Assembly: GCA_937124965.1 (NCBI GenBank)
Contig: CAKZLB010000016.1
Span: 24,712-88,711 of the forward strand
DNA: 64,000 nucleotides
Direction: 5' to 3'
Source of the DNA: an uncultured Bacteroidota bacterium
GTDB lineage: Bacteria > Bacteroidota > Bacteroidia > NS11-12g > UBA9320
The notes beneath the pieces are model-generated. The model did no database searches and had not been told where the DNA came from. It saw only the letters and a program-made list of their open reading frames with translations. The position numbers were made by a program, and so were the translations under genes. Below are positions 2,784 to 10,703 of the stretch, in pieces. Position 1 is the first letter of the stretch; every line of letters starts with the position of its first letter.

Positions 2784-4373
2784 TCACTCCTTCTCCCAAT
2801 ACTCACTCATTTGAGCTTCGGCTTGACGTATCCAACTATCGTTTTGGATTAACGAGTCTTGATTTATCCAAGTCACTTTGCTATGTCGGGCGTCGGTCAA
2901 CGTTAGTTCAGGAATACTACCTCCAATATATTCTCCTTTATCGCCGGCTTTGGTTACAATGGTACTCAGCCACATAAACCTAGGTTTGCCATCAACTATG
3001 CGAACGAACGGACGACTTTCAGCTGGATAGTTTTTGCTCCAATCATAGTTCTTTTTGCTTTCAATGATTTTAGCCGTAATTGCACTACTTCCGATATACG
3101 AGTCTTTCGTTTTTCGATGGTCAATGAAGTATACTTTTTCGTCAGTATCGCCTGGAATTAATAAGCTCAAACTCAATCCTTTTTTACTCTCTTCGTACGG
3201 TTCTAATCCAAAAAAGTGGTACAACTTTTCATCATTTTTAACCTTAAAATAGGTCACAAATGGCTGTGGGTTTACATCGTTAGGCAATCTTGGGATCCGA
3301 ATATCGCCTTCGTGATAAAAAGGCATCGGTGCAAAAAAACCATTGGAAAAACGGAAGCTTTCGGCAGTAAAAGCAGCCACTCTTCGTGGAATAATATTTT
3401 GACCCTTTAAAAACGCGAACTCAGAAATTCGAGGAACAGAAACATAATCACCTCTACCTAACAAAACACGTTTCCAATACACGTCTTCGTCCCGTTTTTC
3501 GTGAATTACAAAAACACCATCAAACACAGGTCGAGGAAATAAAATTCCTTTCCAACGTACAATCGGTACTACTTGAACCCAGTGTCCATTATTGTCTTGA
3601 AGATATAATGGCGTTGCTGCTTCGCAATTTAAATATTGACTAATGTTAAATCGCTTCGTCACAGAGGCTTCCGTCTTTTTGCTAAACAACAAAAGCTCTC
3701 CAATATCAAAATTGACATCTTTTCTATATTTTCCGGAAAAGACAGGAGCCGGTAAGTTAGACGGCACATGCAAAATTTCGTACATGTTTTTTTGAAACTG
3801 TTGAAGCTTATAAGACCTCGATGGTCCAACGGCGCAACTAAAATAATACTGTCCGTCGTTGCCTCGAATGAATCTTGGCTCTGTAGCATCTTCGGTTTCA
3901 GAAAGTGCTTCTTGGTTTATTAACGTTCGTACCGAATGGATGGGCTGAATCCGTTCAAAATCTGTTTCGGGAAGCTCAGCCAGCGAAACTTTATTGATGG
4001 TTGAATAGTGAAAATACAAACTCAAATATTTGTAGATTCCTGGACCTGCAAAAAACGAAAACGCCCCAAAGCCTATTAACAAAATGGTAGAGAACACATT
4101 CTTCTTTCCTCCACGTTTCGACCACCCCTTAAAATACCAAACCAGAATTAACAAACATACCACAACAAGAAGGGCATACTTTCGGATGCCTAAAACAGTT
4201 GATTGTAACCCTGCACGATTAATGAATAAAAGTGCAACAATTAACAGAAAAAGTACCGTACTCCAAATGGGTTTGCGTTTGAAATAGGTCTTGAGACTCG
4301 TCCATAACTTGGTTCTGATGTTGTAAACAATCCAGTATAGGCGGTTTGTGATTTCTGGTTTAGGCTCTGTCAT
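2784..4373 (-). CDS. Polytopic membrane protein of unknown family: 3-4 N-terminal TM helices plus a roughly 400-aa C-terminal domain. It is the last gene of the candidate operon.
   Basis: 529 aa. Hydrophobic segments include IWSTVLFLLIVALLFI, YALLVVVCLLILVWYF and VFSTILLIGFGAFSFFAGPGIY. There is a 6-nt gap to the upstream gene. Confidence 0.7.
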   Translation of the reverse strand: MTEPKPEITNRLYWIVYNIRTKLWTSLKTYFKRKPIWSTVLFLLIVALLFINRAGLQSTVLGIRKYALLVVVCLLILVWYFKGWSKRGGKKNVFSTILLIGFGAFSFFAGPGIYKYLSLYFHYSTINKVSLAELPETDFERIQPIHSVRTLINQEALSETEDATEPRFIRGNDGQYYFSCAVGPSRSYKLQQFQKNMYEILHVPSNLPAPVFSGKYRKDVNFDIGELLLFSKKTEASVTKRFNISQYLNCEAATPLYLQDNNGHWVQVVPIVRWKGILFPRPVFDGVFVIHEKRDEDVYWKRVLLGRGDYVSVPRISEFAFLKGQNIIPRRVAAFTAESFRFSNGFFAPMPFYHEGDIRIPRLPNDVNPQPFVTYFKVKNDEKLYHFFGLEPYEESKKGLSLSLLIPGDTDEKVYFIDHRKTKDSYIGSSAITAKIIESKKNYDWSKNYPAESRPFVRIVDGKPRFMWLSTIVTKAGDKGEYIGGSIPELTLTDARHSKVTWINQDSLIQNDSWIRQAEAQMSEYWEKE

Positions 4374-4379
4374 ACTGTA

Positions 4380-4895
4380 TTATTTGTCTAAAAAGTCCTT
4401 AATACCTTTTCTCCAATCTTCGTCTTTATCGTCTTTTTTAGGAGGAGACTTTATCTCATCACGCTCAGGTTTGGGTGTTTCGACGTTTATAGGTTTAACT
4501 TCTTTTATATCCGCTTCAATTGCATCAATTTTTCTGAGCGTTTCATTGGCTTTTTTTAAACCTTTAGGTAGTTTATTGGCTATAAATGGGCCTACATAAA
4601 ACCCTATGATTACAGCAACTAAGGCTATCCCACCTTGAAGAAAAGTTATGAGTGGGTTTAGGTTACCCAACCACCAAGTAATGTACATGAAGACGCCTGT
4701 TATTATAATAGCTGGTACAACACGTTTTGAAAAAGGTTGATTGCGAATAAAGGTGTCATCAATGGATGGATGCAACGGATCCTTGTGACTTAAGTCGTAC
4801 CATCGTTTGTACCAAGCTTGTCCTTTTTTATGATCCCATAAAACGAAAAGGATGCCTAAAACTAAACCGATAATGAGCGAAAGTATTGAGTCCAT
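4380..4895 (-). CDS. Small 2-TM membrane protein with a lysine/aspartate/glutamate-rich C-terminal tail. Unknown family.
   Basis: 171 aa. TM segments are VVPAIIITGVFMYITWWLG and GGIALVAVIIGFYVGPFI. The tail is KPINVETPKPERDEIKSPPKKDDKDEDWRK. There is a 2-nt gap to the upstream gene. Confidence 0.65.
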   Translation of the reverse strand: MDSILSLIIGLVLGILFVLWDHKKGQAWYKRWYDLSHKDPLHPSIDDTFIRNQPFSKRVVPAIIITGVFMYITWWLGNLNPLITFLQGGIALVAVIIGFYVGPFIANKLPKGLKKANETLRKIDAIEADIKEVKPINVETPKPERDEIKSPPKKDDKDEDWRKGIKDFLDK

Positions 4896-4897
4896 AA

Positions 4898-6172
4898 TTA
4901 TTGGATTAAGTGATTGTAAATGTCTTTATGTTTCAAAATTTTATCGATAATCCATTGTTGGGTCTGGTCGTCCCACGATTGGTAATCGGTGTAGAATTTT
5001 GATTTATCAAAAAGGTACGTAATAACAGGGTTTGAATCATTGATATTAGACAACATCTTCCAAAGCACTTTTTTGTCACGTTGATTCAGATGACTCTTTG
5101 GATTGAGCAAGTAAGGAAAAAGGGATTGTGGCAAATCATCCGCGTTAATATTCTTTCCATCTCTTACGTCTCCAATTAATCGTTCAAATTCAAAATAAAC
5201 ATCTGGCAGATGCCCGTCTTGGAGTAATTTGTTTATCAGTCCTTTTTTCTGATTTTTATTTAATGAGATGTAATCATACTTTTTTCCTGAAGCGCTTATT
5301 GCACTCAACAGTACCTGCTCTTGCATCAAGTCAAGCATTGCTGGAAACTGGGCGTAAATGCTCAAATCGTTTGATATTAATCCAGCATTGTACAAGTAAC
5401 TCACCAGACTTGGGTCTTTGATATTATACTCTATATGGCCGTGTTTTGTTTCGCCAGAAACACTGGTTTTATTCCCACCATAAACGAGCAAGGGTTTGTT
5501 ATTTTTAAGTTTTTTAAAGACATATAATCCGTCAAAAGCCACCGTATGAAACGTGTCAATTTCATTAAATGGATGCGTCGGAATGTCGAGTTTCATGTAG
5601 CGTAAGTCACCATGTTTTTTGCATGATTCAATAATCTCTTTTCGCAAATCGTCATTCGACCAGGCATTTGGTTTATCGTAAAATTCGCTGATAAGCTCTC
5701 GTTGTTTTTGCGCTGCAAGCATTATTCGATCAACACTGTAGAAATTTACCTTGATGTAATCAATCATTAATAAATCTTGTGGTGATCTATACGCCGTAAT
5801 TTCTTGGTCCAATTCAAACCACAAACCAGATCGCGTAGTAATATCGGTGATTTGGTCTTTATAATGTTTGAATATTTTCTGATGTATTTGTCGATCGAAA
5901 CTATGATACGGCATGTATATAGCGCTATCTTCTTGTTTCGGAGTGATGATAATTCCGTATGGATTGGCAAGTCCATGCGATAAGTAAAAACGGTCATCTT
6001 GTTCTTCTGCAATCTGCGGGCTCCATCCCCAACCATCAATGTGAAACTGTTTTAATTTGGTAGGAGCGAGGCCAATATCTTCCAAGCACTCGTTGTACCG
6101 CTTTACTAACGATGGCGAGTAAATATCCACCAAATTGTGACCAAAAAGTTCGCTTTCGATAAGTTTAATCAT
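4898..6172 (-). CDS. Hypothetical 424-aa soluble protein with no recognised motif. Operon member.
   Basis: Long uninterrupted ORF. It overlaps the upstream AAA gene by 8 nt, suggesting translational coupling. Confidence 0.65.
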   Translation of the reverse strand: MIKLIESELFGHNLVDIYSPSLVKRYNECLEDIGLAPTKLKQFHIDGWGWSPQIAEEQDDRFYLSHGLANPYGIIITPKQEDSAIYMPYHSFDRQIHQKIFKHYKDQITDITTRSGLWFELDQEITAYRSPQDLLMIDYIKVNFYSVDRIMLAAQKQRELISEFYDKPNAWSNDDLRKEIIESCKKHGDLRYMKLDIPTHPFNEIDTFHTVAFDGLYVFKKLKNNKPLLVYGGNKTSVSGETKHGHIEYNIKDPSLVSYLYNAGLISNDLSIYAQFPAMLDLMQEQVLLSAISASGKKYDYISLNKNQKKGLINKLLQDGHLPDVYFEFERLIGDVRDGKNINADDLPQSLFPYLLNPKSHLNQRDKKVLWKMLSNINDSNPVITYLFDKSKFYTDYQSWDDQTQQWIIDKILKHKDIYNHLIQ

Positions 6173-8126
6173 GAATGTTTCCGTTCATTAATTCTTTATT
6201 CGCTTGTTGTTGAATGTACAAACGTTTTGCCTGTTCCTTAATTTCTCTATTTACACCAGTTTGGTTAATTCGAATACTATTTTCTATATAGTTCAAAGCT
6301 TCATACAGTCGGATATCTCCAAATGAAACCCCTTTCATATTCTGCTTCATTAGGTCTTTCAATATGATGATTTTTTTGTCATACGGTTGCGTGAAAAAAT
6401 CATCTTTGTTGCTCCACCAAACCTCTGGTAGGTCAAAATCTATCAATCGAGCGTCAACTGCTTTTTGAATATTTCGAAGATCTCTCGAAGAAAAGAACGG
6501 ATATTTCTGTAACACCGATTCATAAAACTTACCAAAAAATTGATGCGCATCGACATCTACTTGTTTGGATGTGTTATAAAACATTTCTTCAAGTTCTGGG
6601 ATTTGAAACGAGTATTTTGTTTCAACCAACTCGTTGATGGATGCCGCAGCTTGTTGCGCGTCCATGTATTTGTAGTTTTTAGGATCCTGATTGTCAATGA
6701 ATTTTTTATCTAGTTCCGTATATTTCTTCCACCACAAATAATCTTGATCCATGAAATCAAACTCACTAGAAGCACCTTCCATTGATATCCGCATCTGAAT
6801 TCTAGACAGCACCGCCTTATCAATTTGATCCGGAATATTTGTGAATAGACTGATCAAACGATTACCAAGATTTACTGCGTACGCACCTTCAGTATTCCGA
6901 AGGAAAACGCCTATGAATTCTCTTACACCCGCCGAAACACCTTGTCTGGTTCGTTCTTCTAAATTGTTTTCTGCATCATCAATAGGAGCAAAAACAATTT
7001 TATTAGGATCTTGCATTGGTTTAAACCATTCCATTGCTCGTTCTGCAGTTCCACCTTGAAACGTAGAAACGATGGTTTCTGGCAATGGCCAAAAAAGAAA
7101 TGGATATCCTAAATCGTCGCATCGTTCTTGAATTAACGTCGCAGTTGCAGCAATAAGCATACTTTTTCCAGTACCAGGTTTTCCATCGGCCATGGTTATG
7201 GAAGGTAATCCACCAAGCTCATTGATAGGGTTCATTTTTGCATCAAAATCGTAACACAATAACCTCTCTGCATAACGTTTAAAAAGATGTTTCGCCTGTT
7301 TATTAGCTACAATCGCCTCCATTCGAGTTGGATTGAATTGTGTACCCTTCACGGACACAGAAGAGGGCGATTCAAACCCTTGAATAACATATTGCGTTTT
7401 TTCAAGTTTGTAATGGTTTTGGGTAAAAGCTTCCGAATACTTTAATGCATTTTTTCGGAGAATTACTTCTTCCATTATTCGTTCAAAGTATAATAAGGTC
7501 AGCTTTACAAAGTGCAAGTCTGATACAACAACTCCTGAACGCTCTAAGTACGCCGCATAGTAATACATGCTACATTGAATCGCTTTCGAAGGTCGTGTTA
7601 AACTGACCTCAGGAATTCCTGCGAAGTCAATTTGAATAGACGAAACTTCATCCGAGCGATAATCGGCTAGTGCGTATTGAATAAATGTGGAAGCAGCAAA
7701 AAGTAAGATTGCACTTTGTGTTTGACTTTTATCATGAAACTCTGGGAGTTCAGATTGATGCAAACTGCCATTTTTGTTTTTTTGATGAAGCAATTCTAAA
7801 CCACTTGCGTCGCCATATAGCTTGGCAATGTGTTTTCCGATGCTGTAACCTTTGCGTATTGCATTCATTACTTGATTGCTCGCATTCGATAATATCACAC
7901 GATCGTTGCTAATTCGGACCGCCTCTTTTAATACACTCGATTGATCTTCCTGTTGCAAATCCATTGCTTTTGACACATTGGACAAGAAGTTTAAATTGAT
8001 AGCATTTGCACCCGATTTATTGTCAGGCTTCCAACTAACTTGTTTTAAGTACGTGGTAATTTCTTCTTTATACTGATCTAAGTCGTCTTCTTTTATTTTT
8101 AATAAGGATGATTCTTGTTTTTCCAT
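6165..8126 (-). CDS. Classical-clade AAA ATPase with Vps4/katanin/spastin-like sensor region, carrying a roughly 300-aa N-terminal domain of unknown type.
   Basis: 653 aa. Walker A is GKPGTGKS. A Walker B-like motif is KIVFAPIDDAE. The sensor-1/SRH stretch VNLGNRLISLFTNIPDQIDKAVLSRIQMRISM resembles Vps4 (ATNIPWxLDxAIRRRFEKRIYIPLP). Confidence 0.75.
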   Translation of the reverse strand: MEKQESSLLKIKEDDLDQYKEEITTYLKQVSWKPDNKSGANAINLNFLSNVSKAMDLQQEDQSSVLKEAVRISNDRVILSNASNQVMNAIRKGYSIGKHIAKLYGDASGLELLHQKNKNGSLHQSELPEFHDKSQTQSAILLFAASTFIQYALADYRSDEVSSIQIDFAGIPEVSLTRPSKAIQCSMYYYAAYLERSGVVVSDLHFVKLTLLYFERIMEEVILRKNALKYSEAFTQNHYKLEKTQYVIQGFESPSSVSVKGTQFNPTRMEAIVANKQAKHLFKRYAERLLCYDFDAKMNPINELGGLPSITMADGKPGTGKSMLIAATATLIQERCDDLGYPFLFWPLPETIVSTFQGGTAERAMEWFKPMQDPNKIVFAPIDDAENNLEERTRQGVSAGVREFIGVFLRNTEGAYAVNLGNRLISLFTNIPDQIDKAVLSRIQMRISMEGASSEFDFMDQDYLWWKKYTELDKKFIDNQDPKNYKYMDAQQAAASINELVETKYSFQIPELEEMFYNTSKQVDVDAHQFFGKFYESVLQKYPFFSSRDLRNIQKAVDARLIDFDLPEVWWSNKDDFFTQPYDKKIIILKDLMKQNMKGVSFGDIRLYEALNYIENSIRINQTGVNREIKEQAKRLYIQQQANKELMNGNIHD

Positions 8127-8179
8127 GTTTTACCAATATTGACAACTAAATCGTTTGATTTAATTGTCTTTTTTTCATG

Positions 8180-9280
8180 TTATTTATTGTAAACGTAAAC
8201 AGGTGCAGCAAGTCCCTTTAACGTTTCAGGTTCTGTATCGTTCAGGTATTGTAATACATCATGTGACGTAATCATATACGAATGCATATCCGACACCATT
8301 CGATCCATGCATTCTTTATTCGACTCGTCTACATGAAAGATTTGGCGAAGTTCTCCCTTAGACAAAAACGACTTGCTTCGCTTTTCACCTTTAGAAAAAA
8401 CTACCTCTGTTTTGTACGTGATGATGAAGTCATCGTCCGTAAAATGTTTCCTTAGAAGTAGGGAATATTTATGCTTGTCACGTGAATACTTTCCATATAT
8501 AGGCCCAATCTCTATGCGTTTTAACACCTTGGGCATAATGTTTTCGTATGCATTATCAATATCCGATGCCATCACTTTAAGTGGCGCGGAATTATGCGTA
8601 ATTTTCTTCAACGTTTCAACAAAAGCTGGGTCGTTGTCTACACCAGACAAAGGGTCTTTTGAAACCAGTGGGTTGTCAAAAATCATTATGTAGATATATG
8701 GTTTGTTCGTTACACTGTCGTAAGACGCCCATGAATAAAAGAAAGTTCGTGTTTTATGTTCGTCTGTATGTTGATTAAGCAACTCAATGCTACCCGGGGT
8801 AAATTCAGTAAATAAATTACTCCATTGTAATCGTATGTAGTAGCTCGATTTACTTAATTTATTCAGTAACGAAATCGGGTCAGACTTCTTTCGAACCATA
8901 TGGTCTAAGATGCTTTGTTTTAAAGAATCTTTCGATGGCAATTTCGCTAACTCCGCATCTTTTTTGTCAATATCCGCATCCAGCTTCTTAAATTCCATAA
9001 AGTTTGGGAAGCCACTTTCCGTGACGTCCACAAGCATAGAATTTGTCTCGTCGTATGCATACTTTAATCGTAAAGCTTCTATGGAATTAAGATACTTTTG
9101 AGAAAAGCTCTTCAGTGCTTTTATTTCTTTCGAATCTTCCGATGTGAGACTGTCGAACGAATTCAACAAAATCTCCAGACAGTTTTTTACGTAGTTGAAG
9201 TAATCGGAGTATGCGTTCTCGCCAGCTAGAATACTCCGATCTAACTCTGTAAAATGATTGTTTATATCAATGGTCTTCAC
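8180..9280 (-). CDS. Hypothetical 366-aa protein. Operon member, no recognised domain.
   Basis: Long ORF in the same orientation. There is a 9-nt gap to the upstream gene. Confidence 0.6.
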   Translation of the reverse strand: MKTIDINNHFTELDRSILAGENAYSDYFNYVKNCLEILLNSFDSLTSEDSKEIKALKSFSQKYLNSIEALRLKYAYDETNSMLVDVTESGFPNFMEFKKLDADIDKKDAELAKLPSKDSLKQSILDHMVRKKSDPISLLNKLSKSSYYIRLQWSNLFTEFTPGSIELLNQHTDEHKTRTFFYSWASYDSVTNKPYIYIMIFDNPLVSKDPLSGVDNDPAFVETLKKITHNSAPLKVMASDIDNAYENIMPKVLKRIEIGPIYGKYSRDKHKYSLLLRKHFTDDDFIITYKTEVVFSKGEKRSKSFLSKGELRQIFHVDESNKECMDRMVSDMHSYMITSHDVLQYLNDTEPETLKGLAAPVYVYNK

Positions 9281-9289
9281 GTCGTACGA

Positions 9290-10669
9290 TTAGTCCATCA
9301 AGTTATTGACTGAATCATTGGAAGGTTTGTTTGGTGTGCCATTGTCTTTAGGCGCGTCATCGTTGCCTGTCTTTTCGTGCTTAAACGAGAATGTTTCGCT
9401 TACATCAATTCCAAACTTTTTACCATGCTGTTCCATGATTTTAGCATCTTCTTCCTTGTATTTTGCCGTTGCTTCAGCCATTGCTACCAATACTTGATGC
9501 AATTCGGTCATACGTTTAGGATGTTTTTTAACACGTTCAATTCTATCTTTTTCAGAACCGACGAGCACTTTAGCAGCAATCTCAGTTATTTTTTGATCGG
9601 TTTTAACACCAGCTTCTTCATACATCGAAGCAGCTTCTTGCGCTGTTGCCGACTGAATTAATTGCAATCCAGATTCGTATGTTGCAACTCTTTCTTCTGT
9701 ATCACTCTTCAGCTGACCAATAAGCTGTTTAAGGTTGTTCTTAGTTGTGGTTTGAGCCTCAAGGTGGATAACAATTTGATCAACAAATCGCTCTTTTGAC
9801 TGAAAGATTCCCAATGCAATATTGAACTTACCTTTCAGGTCAGACCTACGTTCTTTTAAGTCGGCAACTTTCTTTTCTTGGGCAGTATACTCAGGGCTAT
9901 TGTTTGGCAACTCGGTAAGTTCGGTTTCGGCTTGCTTAAGTTCGTTTTCCGTTTGTTCAAGATCTGCCTTGCGATCTTCCATAATTGTCGCAGCCTTTTC
10001 TTTCGTTTCGAACGCAAGTTCTTTTCTATTTTTAAGTGAAACTATTTGTGCGTCAACATCGATAATCATGTTTTCTACAATACCCACCATGCCTTGTACC
10101 TGGCTGATGATTCGGTTTAGACTTTCTCCGATATCTGCGTTTTTAAGACGATCTCTATAACGTTTTTGAGCTTCTTCCTCTGCAGCTTTTAATGCAGAAA
10201 TCATTTGCTCAAGTTCTTCTTTACTCTTTTTTACTTTGCTGTTTTTGTAACCAAATAAAATATTCCAAGCATTCGACATACCCTCAGCGTCCATCACTTC
10301 AACTTCTGCTTTTTTACGAGCATTGCTGGCGTTTTCTACCAGTTTTTGTTCGGATGCATTAAGTTCTTGAAGCTTCGAAAACTCTCCTCCACAACTATCA
10401 AGCATTGATCGTAAGTGAAGCATTAGTTCTTGTAAATCCTGTTCCGTGGCTTCGACATCGCCATTTAAGGAGTCGAAATTTGCATTGATGATACCATCAA
10501 CAATTTCTTCTGAAGATCTATTTTCTTCAACCGCTTTTTCAATATCGGCTTCTATTTGGTCAAGTTTGGAGGTGATGTCCTCACCTGTTTTTTTTTCAAG
10601 TTTTGCTTTTAGGGTTTCTACTTTTTTTTGATCACCCAATTGGTCTAGCAAATCAAAGGAGTCTGACAT
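9290..10669 (-). CDS. Acidic coiled-coil protein, 459 aa and almost entirely helical with glutamate/lysine-rich heptads. It may be TelA-like or PspA/ESCRT-III-like. First gene of the operon.
   Basis: Composition and heptad-like runs such as KADLEQTENELKQAETELTEL and LKERRSDLKGKF. There are no TM segments. A divergent promoter region lies upstream. Confidence 0.65.
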   Translation of the reverse strand: MSDSFDLLDQLGDQKKVETLKAKLEKKTGEDITSKLDQIEADIEKAVEENRSSEEIVDGIINANFDSLNGDVEATEQDLQELMLHLRSMLDSCGGEFSKLQELNASEQKLVENASNARKKAEVEVMDAEGMSNAWNILFGYKNSKVKKSKEELEQMISALKAAEEEAQKRYRDRLKNADIGESLNRIISQVQGMVGIVENMIIDVDAQIVSLKNRKELAFETKEKAATIMEDRKADLEQTENELKQAETELTELPNNSPEYTAQEKKVADLKERRSDLKGKFNIALGIFQSKERFVDQIVIHLEAQTTTKNNLKQLIGQLKSDTEERVATYESGLQLIQSATAQEAASMYEEAGVKTDQKITEIAAKVLVGSEKDRIERVKKHPKRMTELHQVLVAMAEATAKYKEEDAKIMEQHGKKFGIDVSETFSFKHEKTGNDDAPKDNGTPNKPSNDSVNNLMD

Positions 10670-10695: not shown

Positions 10696-10703
10696 CAAAT
10701 TTA
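10696..10703 (-). promoter_or_regulatory. Candidate Bacteroidetes -7 promoter element TAAATTTG for the six-gene operon.
   Basis: The minus-strand sequence ...ttattaaaTTTGggcatc... lies about 30 nt upstream of the ATG at 10669 and matches the TAnnTTTG consensus. No clear -33 TTG was found. Confidence 0.3.

Follow-up and report, generated by a model that had tools for sequence, protein, structure and literature searches.

The closest described relatives of the AAA ATPase encoded in the locus analyzed here are the substrate-threading unfoldases of the classical AAA clade, including the D2 modules of Cdc48, VAT and p97, Vps4, and the Rpt subunits. Vps4 binds MIM motifs by means of its MIT domains. 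To our knowledge, the classical AAA unfoldases of bacteria consist mainly of FtsH and a few specialized enzymes. A six-gene cassette encoding a further classical AAA ATPase was found in a 64,000-nucleotide stretch of DNA from an uncultured Bacteroidota bacterium, the whole of which is called the window. In the reading that we tentatively favor, at somewhat less than even confidence, the six genes encode one multi-protein machine, in which a membrane-tethered AAA unfoldase would remodel an assembly of coiled-coil protein on the cytoplasmic face of the membrane. Such a machine has not been described before.

Organization of the cassette in the window

According to the open reading frames of the window, the six genes, g1 to g6, all lie on the minus strand between positions 2784 and 10669, separated from g1 to g6 by +9, +53, -8, +2 and +6 nt. 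The earlier note on this DNA had reported six co-directional genes with gaps of -8 to +53 nt, and the same coordinates and gaps were recovered. Direct reading also gave TAAATTTG (10696..10703, minus strand), 34 nt 5' of the g1 ATG. TAnnTTTG is the -7 promoter consensus of Bacteroidota. In about 15 other related loci, all distinct, this motif likewise lies 32-46 nt 5' of g1, and TAAATTTG is a candidate -7 element with a putative promoter function for g1.

Family matches were obtained for only 2 of the 6 products, namely g3 (AAA ATPase core) and g4 (DUF6638). The earlier proposal of an operon-like unit that matches no described system was borne out. As described there, an acidic coiled-coil-rich protein is paired with membrane proteins and a classical AAA ATPase.

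Conservation and distribution

The same gene order is kept in all 63 fetched loci in which g1, g2, g3, g4 and g6 are all detectable. Cassette loci are distributed over at least 6 phyla, with representatives in Bacteroidota, Verrucomicrobiota, Bdellovibrionota, Desulfobacterota, Gammaproteobacteria and Patescibacteria, and the synteny that the earlier note had proposed to check is strongly conserved well beyond this strain, so that the chance juxtaposition named there as a refutation does not apply. The median gaps are 3-14 nt at 4 of the 5 junctions and 75 nt at the g1-g2 junction, and the 8-nt overlap of g3 and g4 is recurrent. The gene order is far beyond chance. Together, the conserved order and tight spacing argue that the genes are expressed together as one complex. 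Complete genomes exist for several cultured carriers, namely Seonamhaeicola sp. MEBiC1930, Psychroserpens species, Rubellicoccus peritrichatus and Desulfonema magnum, and a core variant is carried by Sinorhizobium meliloti.

The AAA ATPase g3

The product of g3 (6165..8126, minus strand; 653 aa) is composed of a unique N-domain of about 290 residues, one AAA module and an extended C-terminal region. The match to PF00004, the AAA core, covers residues 315-448 with an E-value of 4.7e-9 and passes the curated cut-off, and in Pfam the approximately 300 N-terminal and 200 C-terminal residues outside this core have no family match. This agrees with the earlier description of a classical AAA ATPase with a large unassigned N-terminal domain. 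No MIT domain was matched in Pfam, and a profile of the N-domain from 34 sequences found no PDB sequence at E<0.5.

Features of the classical AAA clade, namely Walker A and B, the arginines of the second region of homology (SRH), the sensor-1 Asn and the aromatic pore loop 1, can be seen in g3. Walker A (GPGTGKS) and Walker B (IDDAE) are invariant in 34 homologues. Also invariant are the pore loop STFQGG, which aligns with SMWYGE of Cdc48 D2, sensor-1 N430, and the SRH arginines R442 and R446; in the SRH, FTNIPDQIDKAVLSRIQMR of g3 is aligned to ATNRPDQIDPAIL of Cdc48. Throughout the g3 family Walker B is DD and not the usual DE, which could mean slow hydrolysis, or a switch instead of a motor. 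This substitution is an observation that speaks against the reading favored here.

The g3 family profile matched Cdc48, VAT, NVL, AFG2 and p97 D2 at E 2e-12 to 1e-8, with the best match to the D2 modules of Cdc48/VAT/p97 (E 2e-12), and Rpt subunits were matched as well. The ATPase had previously been called Vps4-like. This label was not upheld, since the D2 of Cdc48/VAT is matched better than Vps4B (2e-12 vs 3e-7), and the Vps4/katanin/spastin group is not the closest to the AAA module of g3.

The cytoplasmic partners g1, g2 and g4

The g1 product (9290..10669, minus strand; 459 aa) is an acidic (pI 4.96), helix-rich cytoplasmic protein with no TM segment, and it is present as a partner in all complete loci. 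Its conserved features are an N-terminal SDxFDLL motif and a strongly kept C-terminal half, followed by a variable tail; the motif at the end of this tail is conserved, with the consensus DLL, and reads NLMD in the window. Searches of Pfam, PADLOC and PDB gave no relative of g1 beyond coiled-coil noise. The lack of similarity of the g1 profile to PspA, Snf7 and TelA, and an N-terminus that is acidic and not membrane-binding, are further observations that speak against the favored reading.

The g2 product (8180..9280, minus strand; 366 aa, GTG start) represents a cytoplasmic family without known relatives, and no Pfam or PDB match was obtained for g2 and 40 homologues. The conserved motifs are SGFP and PKxxKRIxLGP, and Y27, S89, P194, D242, P250, G259, P260, S296, H340 and Q344 are invariant in the alignment. 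Homologues encoded in the core of Rhizobiaceae and Vibrio were matched at E 1e-53 to 1e-59. A Ser-Asp-His triad is unlikely because H340 is replaced in the Vibrio homologues.

The start of g4 (4898..6172, minus strand; 424 aa) overlaps the g3 stop by 8 nt. Its product was earlier listed as unknown, but it matches the Pfam family DUF6638 (PF20343) over residues 10-412 (E 2.2e-36; 126.1 bits against a gathering cut-off of 27). DUF6638 has no assigned function. The S. meliloti homologue matches the same family at E 8e-76. The confident AlphaFold model of g4 has no fold match among solved structures, and no paper mentioning DUF6638 was found in the literature that could be searched. As far as could be found, it has not been described that DUF6638 is invariably linked to two further proteins and a specific AAA ATPase.

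The membrane proteins and the exchangeable module

The g5 product (4380..4895, minus strand; 171 aa) contains three hydrophobic segments (1-19, 59-77 and 88-106), in place of the two TM segments counted earlier, and a charged low-complexity tail. From K+R counts, the tail and loop 1 are predicted to be cytoplasmic. In the alignment the tail is variable, with a conserved C-terminal DWRxGVKDFLDK motif. An ORF with 2-3 TM segments occupies the g5 position also in loci where the sequence search missed g5.

The g6 product (2784..4373, minus strand; 529 aa) has three N-terminal TM helices and a mixed alpha/beta domain of about 400 aa that is predicted to lie outside the membrane. Its confident AlphaFold model found no fold match among solved structures. 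Since the domain is predicted to be extracytoplasmic and shows strong conservation between diderm phyla and Patescibacteria, a conserved envelope or membrane ligand is suggested, and not a fast-evolving phage sensor.

Distant versions of the cassette in Rhizobiaceae, Vibrio and Desulfonema contain g1-g4 only, with no g5 or g6. In Rhizobiaceae, a DUF2333 gene follows the g1-g4 core, with an overlapping start in Shinella. The core of Vibrio and Desulfonema adjoins no membrane gene. A Moraniibacteria locus carries other TM ORFs after the core. Because the distant versions keep g1-g4 with either DUF2333 or no adjoining membrane gene, the unit looks like a four-gene cytoplasmic core combined with an exchangeable membrane module. 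As the versions that have no adjoining membrane module show, the core can presumably work without g5 and g6, which counts against the favored reading. Three parts of g1, namely the N-terminal FDLL motif, the insert at residues 109-163 and the C-terminal tail, are missing from the proteobacterial homologues and are found only where g5 and g6 are present, which fits a docking role for these parts.

Proposed mechanism

The proposed machine would consist of the cytoplasmic core, g1-g4, and the membrane module, g5 and g6. We infer that g3 forms a ring and pulls polypeptide through its aromatic pore loop at the expense of ATP, as other classical AAA proteins do. The likeliest client would be a g1-based assembly, for which g2 and g4 would be cofactors or co-subunits. 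The two membrane proteins would anchor this assembly to the inner face of the cytoplasmic membrane. Both g5 and g1 have a flexible tail with a short conserved motif at its end, and these motifs may serve as docking sites. As a sensor or as an output, g6 could tie the cytoplasmic cycle to the cell envelope.

Genomic neighborhood and the question of defense

The neighborhood of the cassette in the window contains several elements that had been taken as signs of a defense island. The adjoining ParDE pair is present, but it is degraded, as the ParE of the window matches only profile positions 2-45 of 89 and the ParD frame is interrupted after codon 14 by an in-frame TAA. The gene reported as a dinD homologue is also present, but it encodes a Bro-N protein of phage type (phrog_8036, E 5.6e-85). 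The duplication of an rpoD fragment was recovered as described (201-318 vs 2164-2281, 94% identical).

An anti-phage or conflict system would have g1-g4 sense infection, the AAA ATPase drive activation, and a swappable membrane effector damage or seal the membrane in abortive infection. Several findings fit such systems. The distribution crosses phyla and is patchy, with Bacteroidota-type g4 patterns matched in 315 of 185,579 species genomes, and the combination of a conserved core with exchangeable membrane partners recalls the effector swapping of known defense systems. The cassette here abuts the degraded ParDE pair and the phage-type Bro-N gene, a restriction-modification pair is inserted inside the cassette at one locus (L023), the Vibrio copies are surrounded by hypothetical genes on megaplasmids of about 0.9 Mb, and one virus-labelled protein is a structural homologue of g6. 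However, the PADLOC search suggested in the earlier note gave no significant match for the six proteins against PADLOC-DB 2.0 (systems up to 2023). The best matches were PDC-S32 (E 9e-4, on 65 residues of g4) and IetA (E 0.0078, on the AAA core of g3), and g2, g5 and g6 had no match whatever. No nuclease, NADase, protease or other recognizable toxic domain is present, and phage sensors or simple pore formers do not usually show the high conservation across phyla that is seen in the g6 domain.

The flanks of about 35 loci are ordinary and diverse, and the defense-island-like context was not supported. Each Pfam family is seen at most 3 times among their 136 flanking ORFs, only a handful of these ORFs touch PADLOC models, no PADLOC model is matched by more than 2 of them, and there is no enrichment of defense genes. 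In addition, 18 Flavobacteriaceae loci from several genera share one common chromosomal site, unlike defense islands with their fast turnover, and no copies of the cassette were found in phage genomes, IMG/VR or mobilizable-plasmid collections. Because of these three features, the likeliest role would be a cellular one, maintained for the upkeep of the membrane or envelope, and not that of a mobile immunity cassette. A defense role is possible, and we regard it as unlikely.

The question of ESCRT-III, PspA and TelA

The earlier note had suggested a membrane remodelling or repair machine of ESCRT-III/PspA or TelA type. In a true bacterial system of the ESCRT-III/Vps4 or PspA type, g1 would be a divergent ESCRT-III/PspA polymer and g3 the equivalent of Vps4, recognizing motifs in C-terminal tails. 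The combination of a long helical protein with a single-module classical AAA ATPase, which has its own N-domain and C-terminal extension, the presence of membrane proteins in the same operon, and the short conserved motifs at the ends of the flexible tails of g1 and g5, which recall MIM motifs, are in line with this proposal. The Pfam searches did not bear it out: no Snf7, PspA_IM30, TelA or MIT match was obtained for g1 (at E<=1) and its 38 homologues or for the 34 homologues of g3, and the 25 families listed for the 38 g1 homologues at E<=1 include neither Snf7, PspA_IM30 nor TelA. An hhalign comparison of the g1 profile with E. coli PspA gave a probability of 1.6%. Moreover, g1 is twice as long as PspA or ESCRT-III proteins, its acidic N-terminus has no amphipathic basic helix, and g3 is nearer to the D2 of Cdc48/VAT than to Vps4. 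No such operon appears, as far as could be found, in published surveys of PspA/Snf7 and Vps4 neighborhoods (PMC11237479, PMC10936438). Kinship of this kind is accordingly quite improbable.

Least probable of all is a device for membrane protein extraction, quality control or translocation, functionally similar perhaps to Msp1, Cdc48 in ERAD or Bcs1, in which an AAA ring on g5/g6 would pull a client from or through the cytoplasmic membrane with g1, g2 and g4 as adaptors: the intact pore loop of this classical AAA unfoldase, the two co-encoded proteins with few TM segments, which could oligomerize, and the outward-facing g6 domain, which could recognize clients, are compatible with it, but the cassette contains no protease, signal-peptide cargo or variable cargo gene, core-only versions with no adjoining membrane module exist, and three conserved soluble partners exceed the usual need.

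Significance

If the membrane-tethered remodelling machine proposed here is real, a dedicated, multi-partner, membrane-linked classical AAA system would be added to bacteria, the reduced genomes of Patescibacteria included, and bacteria would have gained a novel type of machinery of the membrane or envelope; DUF6638 and DUF2333 would also be given a function. If the cassette is a defense system instead, it would constitute a new family, unusual for a membrane component that carries an external domain. The confident models of two components, g4 and g6, match no solved structure, and the cultured carriers with complete genomes make the system tractable by experiment.

A broader reading, which we consider possible rather than probable, is that of a new kind of prokaryotic AAA-driven membrane machine, in which a cytoplasmic core of four proteins, the classical AAA unfoldase and three others that have no known relatives, plugs into alternative envelope-spanning modules. 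It would have originated independently from ESCRT-III/Vps4 and PspA and would perform a comparable job, cycling a helical assembly at the membrane at the expense of ATP. The cassette would then be ancient enough for its spread over diderm phyla and Patescibacteria.

Comparison with known systems

Compared to Cdc48, p97 and VAT, g3 has the same Walker A, aligned aromatic pore loop, sensor-1 Asn and two SRH arginines. It differs in having a single AAA module where theirs are two, an N-domain of about 290 aa with no detectable relative, about 90 residues inserted before the lid motif, and DD in place of DE in Walker B; additionally, five dedicated partners not known from Cdc48 systems are encoded alongside it.

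The systems of Vps4/CdvC with ESCRT-III/CdvB, and of PspA/Vipp1, may be likened to the cassette by analogy, in that a single-module classical AAA ATPase and a long helical protein would act at the membrane, and g1 and g5 bear short conserved motifs at the ends of flexible tails as the partners of Vps4 do. In contrast, the cassette proteins give no MIT, Snf7 or PspA signal, Vps4 is a weaker match to g3 than Cdc48 D2, g1 is about twice as long as ESCRT-III proteins and has an acidic N-terminus, and the conserved g2, g4, g5 and g6 have no ESCRT counterpart.

Among modular anti-phage systems with TM effectors, CBASS/Pycsar, Zorya and Kiwa are similar in being self-contained cassettes of patchy cross-phylum spread, with a conserved cytoplasmic part and exchangeable membrane partners. 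The present cassette differs from them in that its six proteins match no PADLOC model and show no association with defense islands, the locus is stably inherited across genera, and the external domain of g6 is large and highly conserved.

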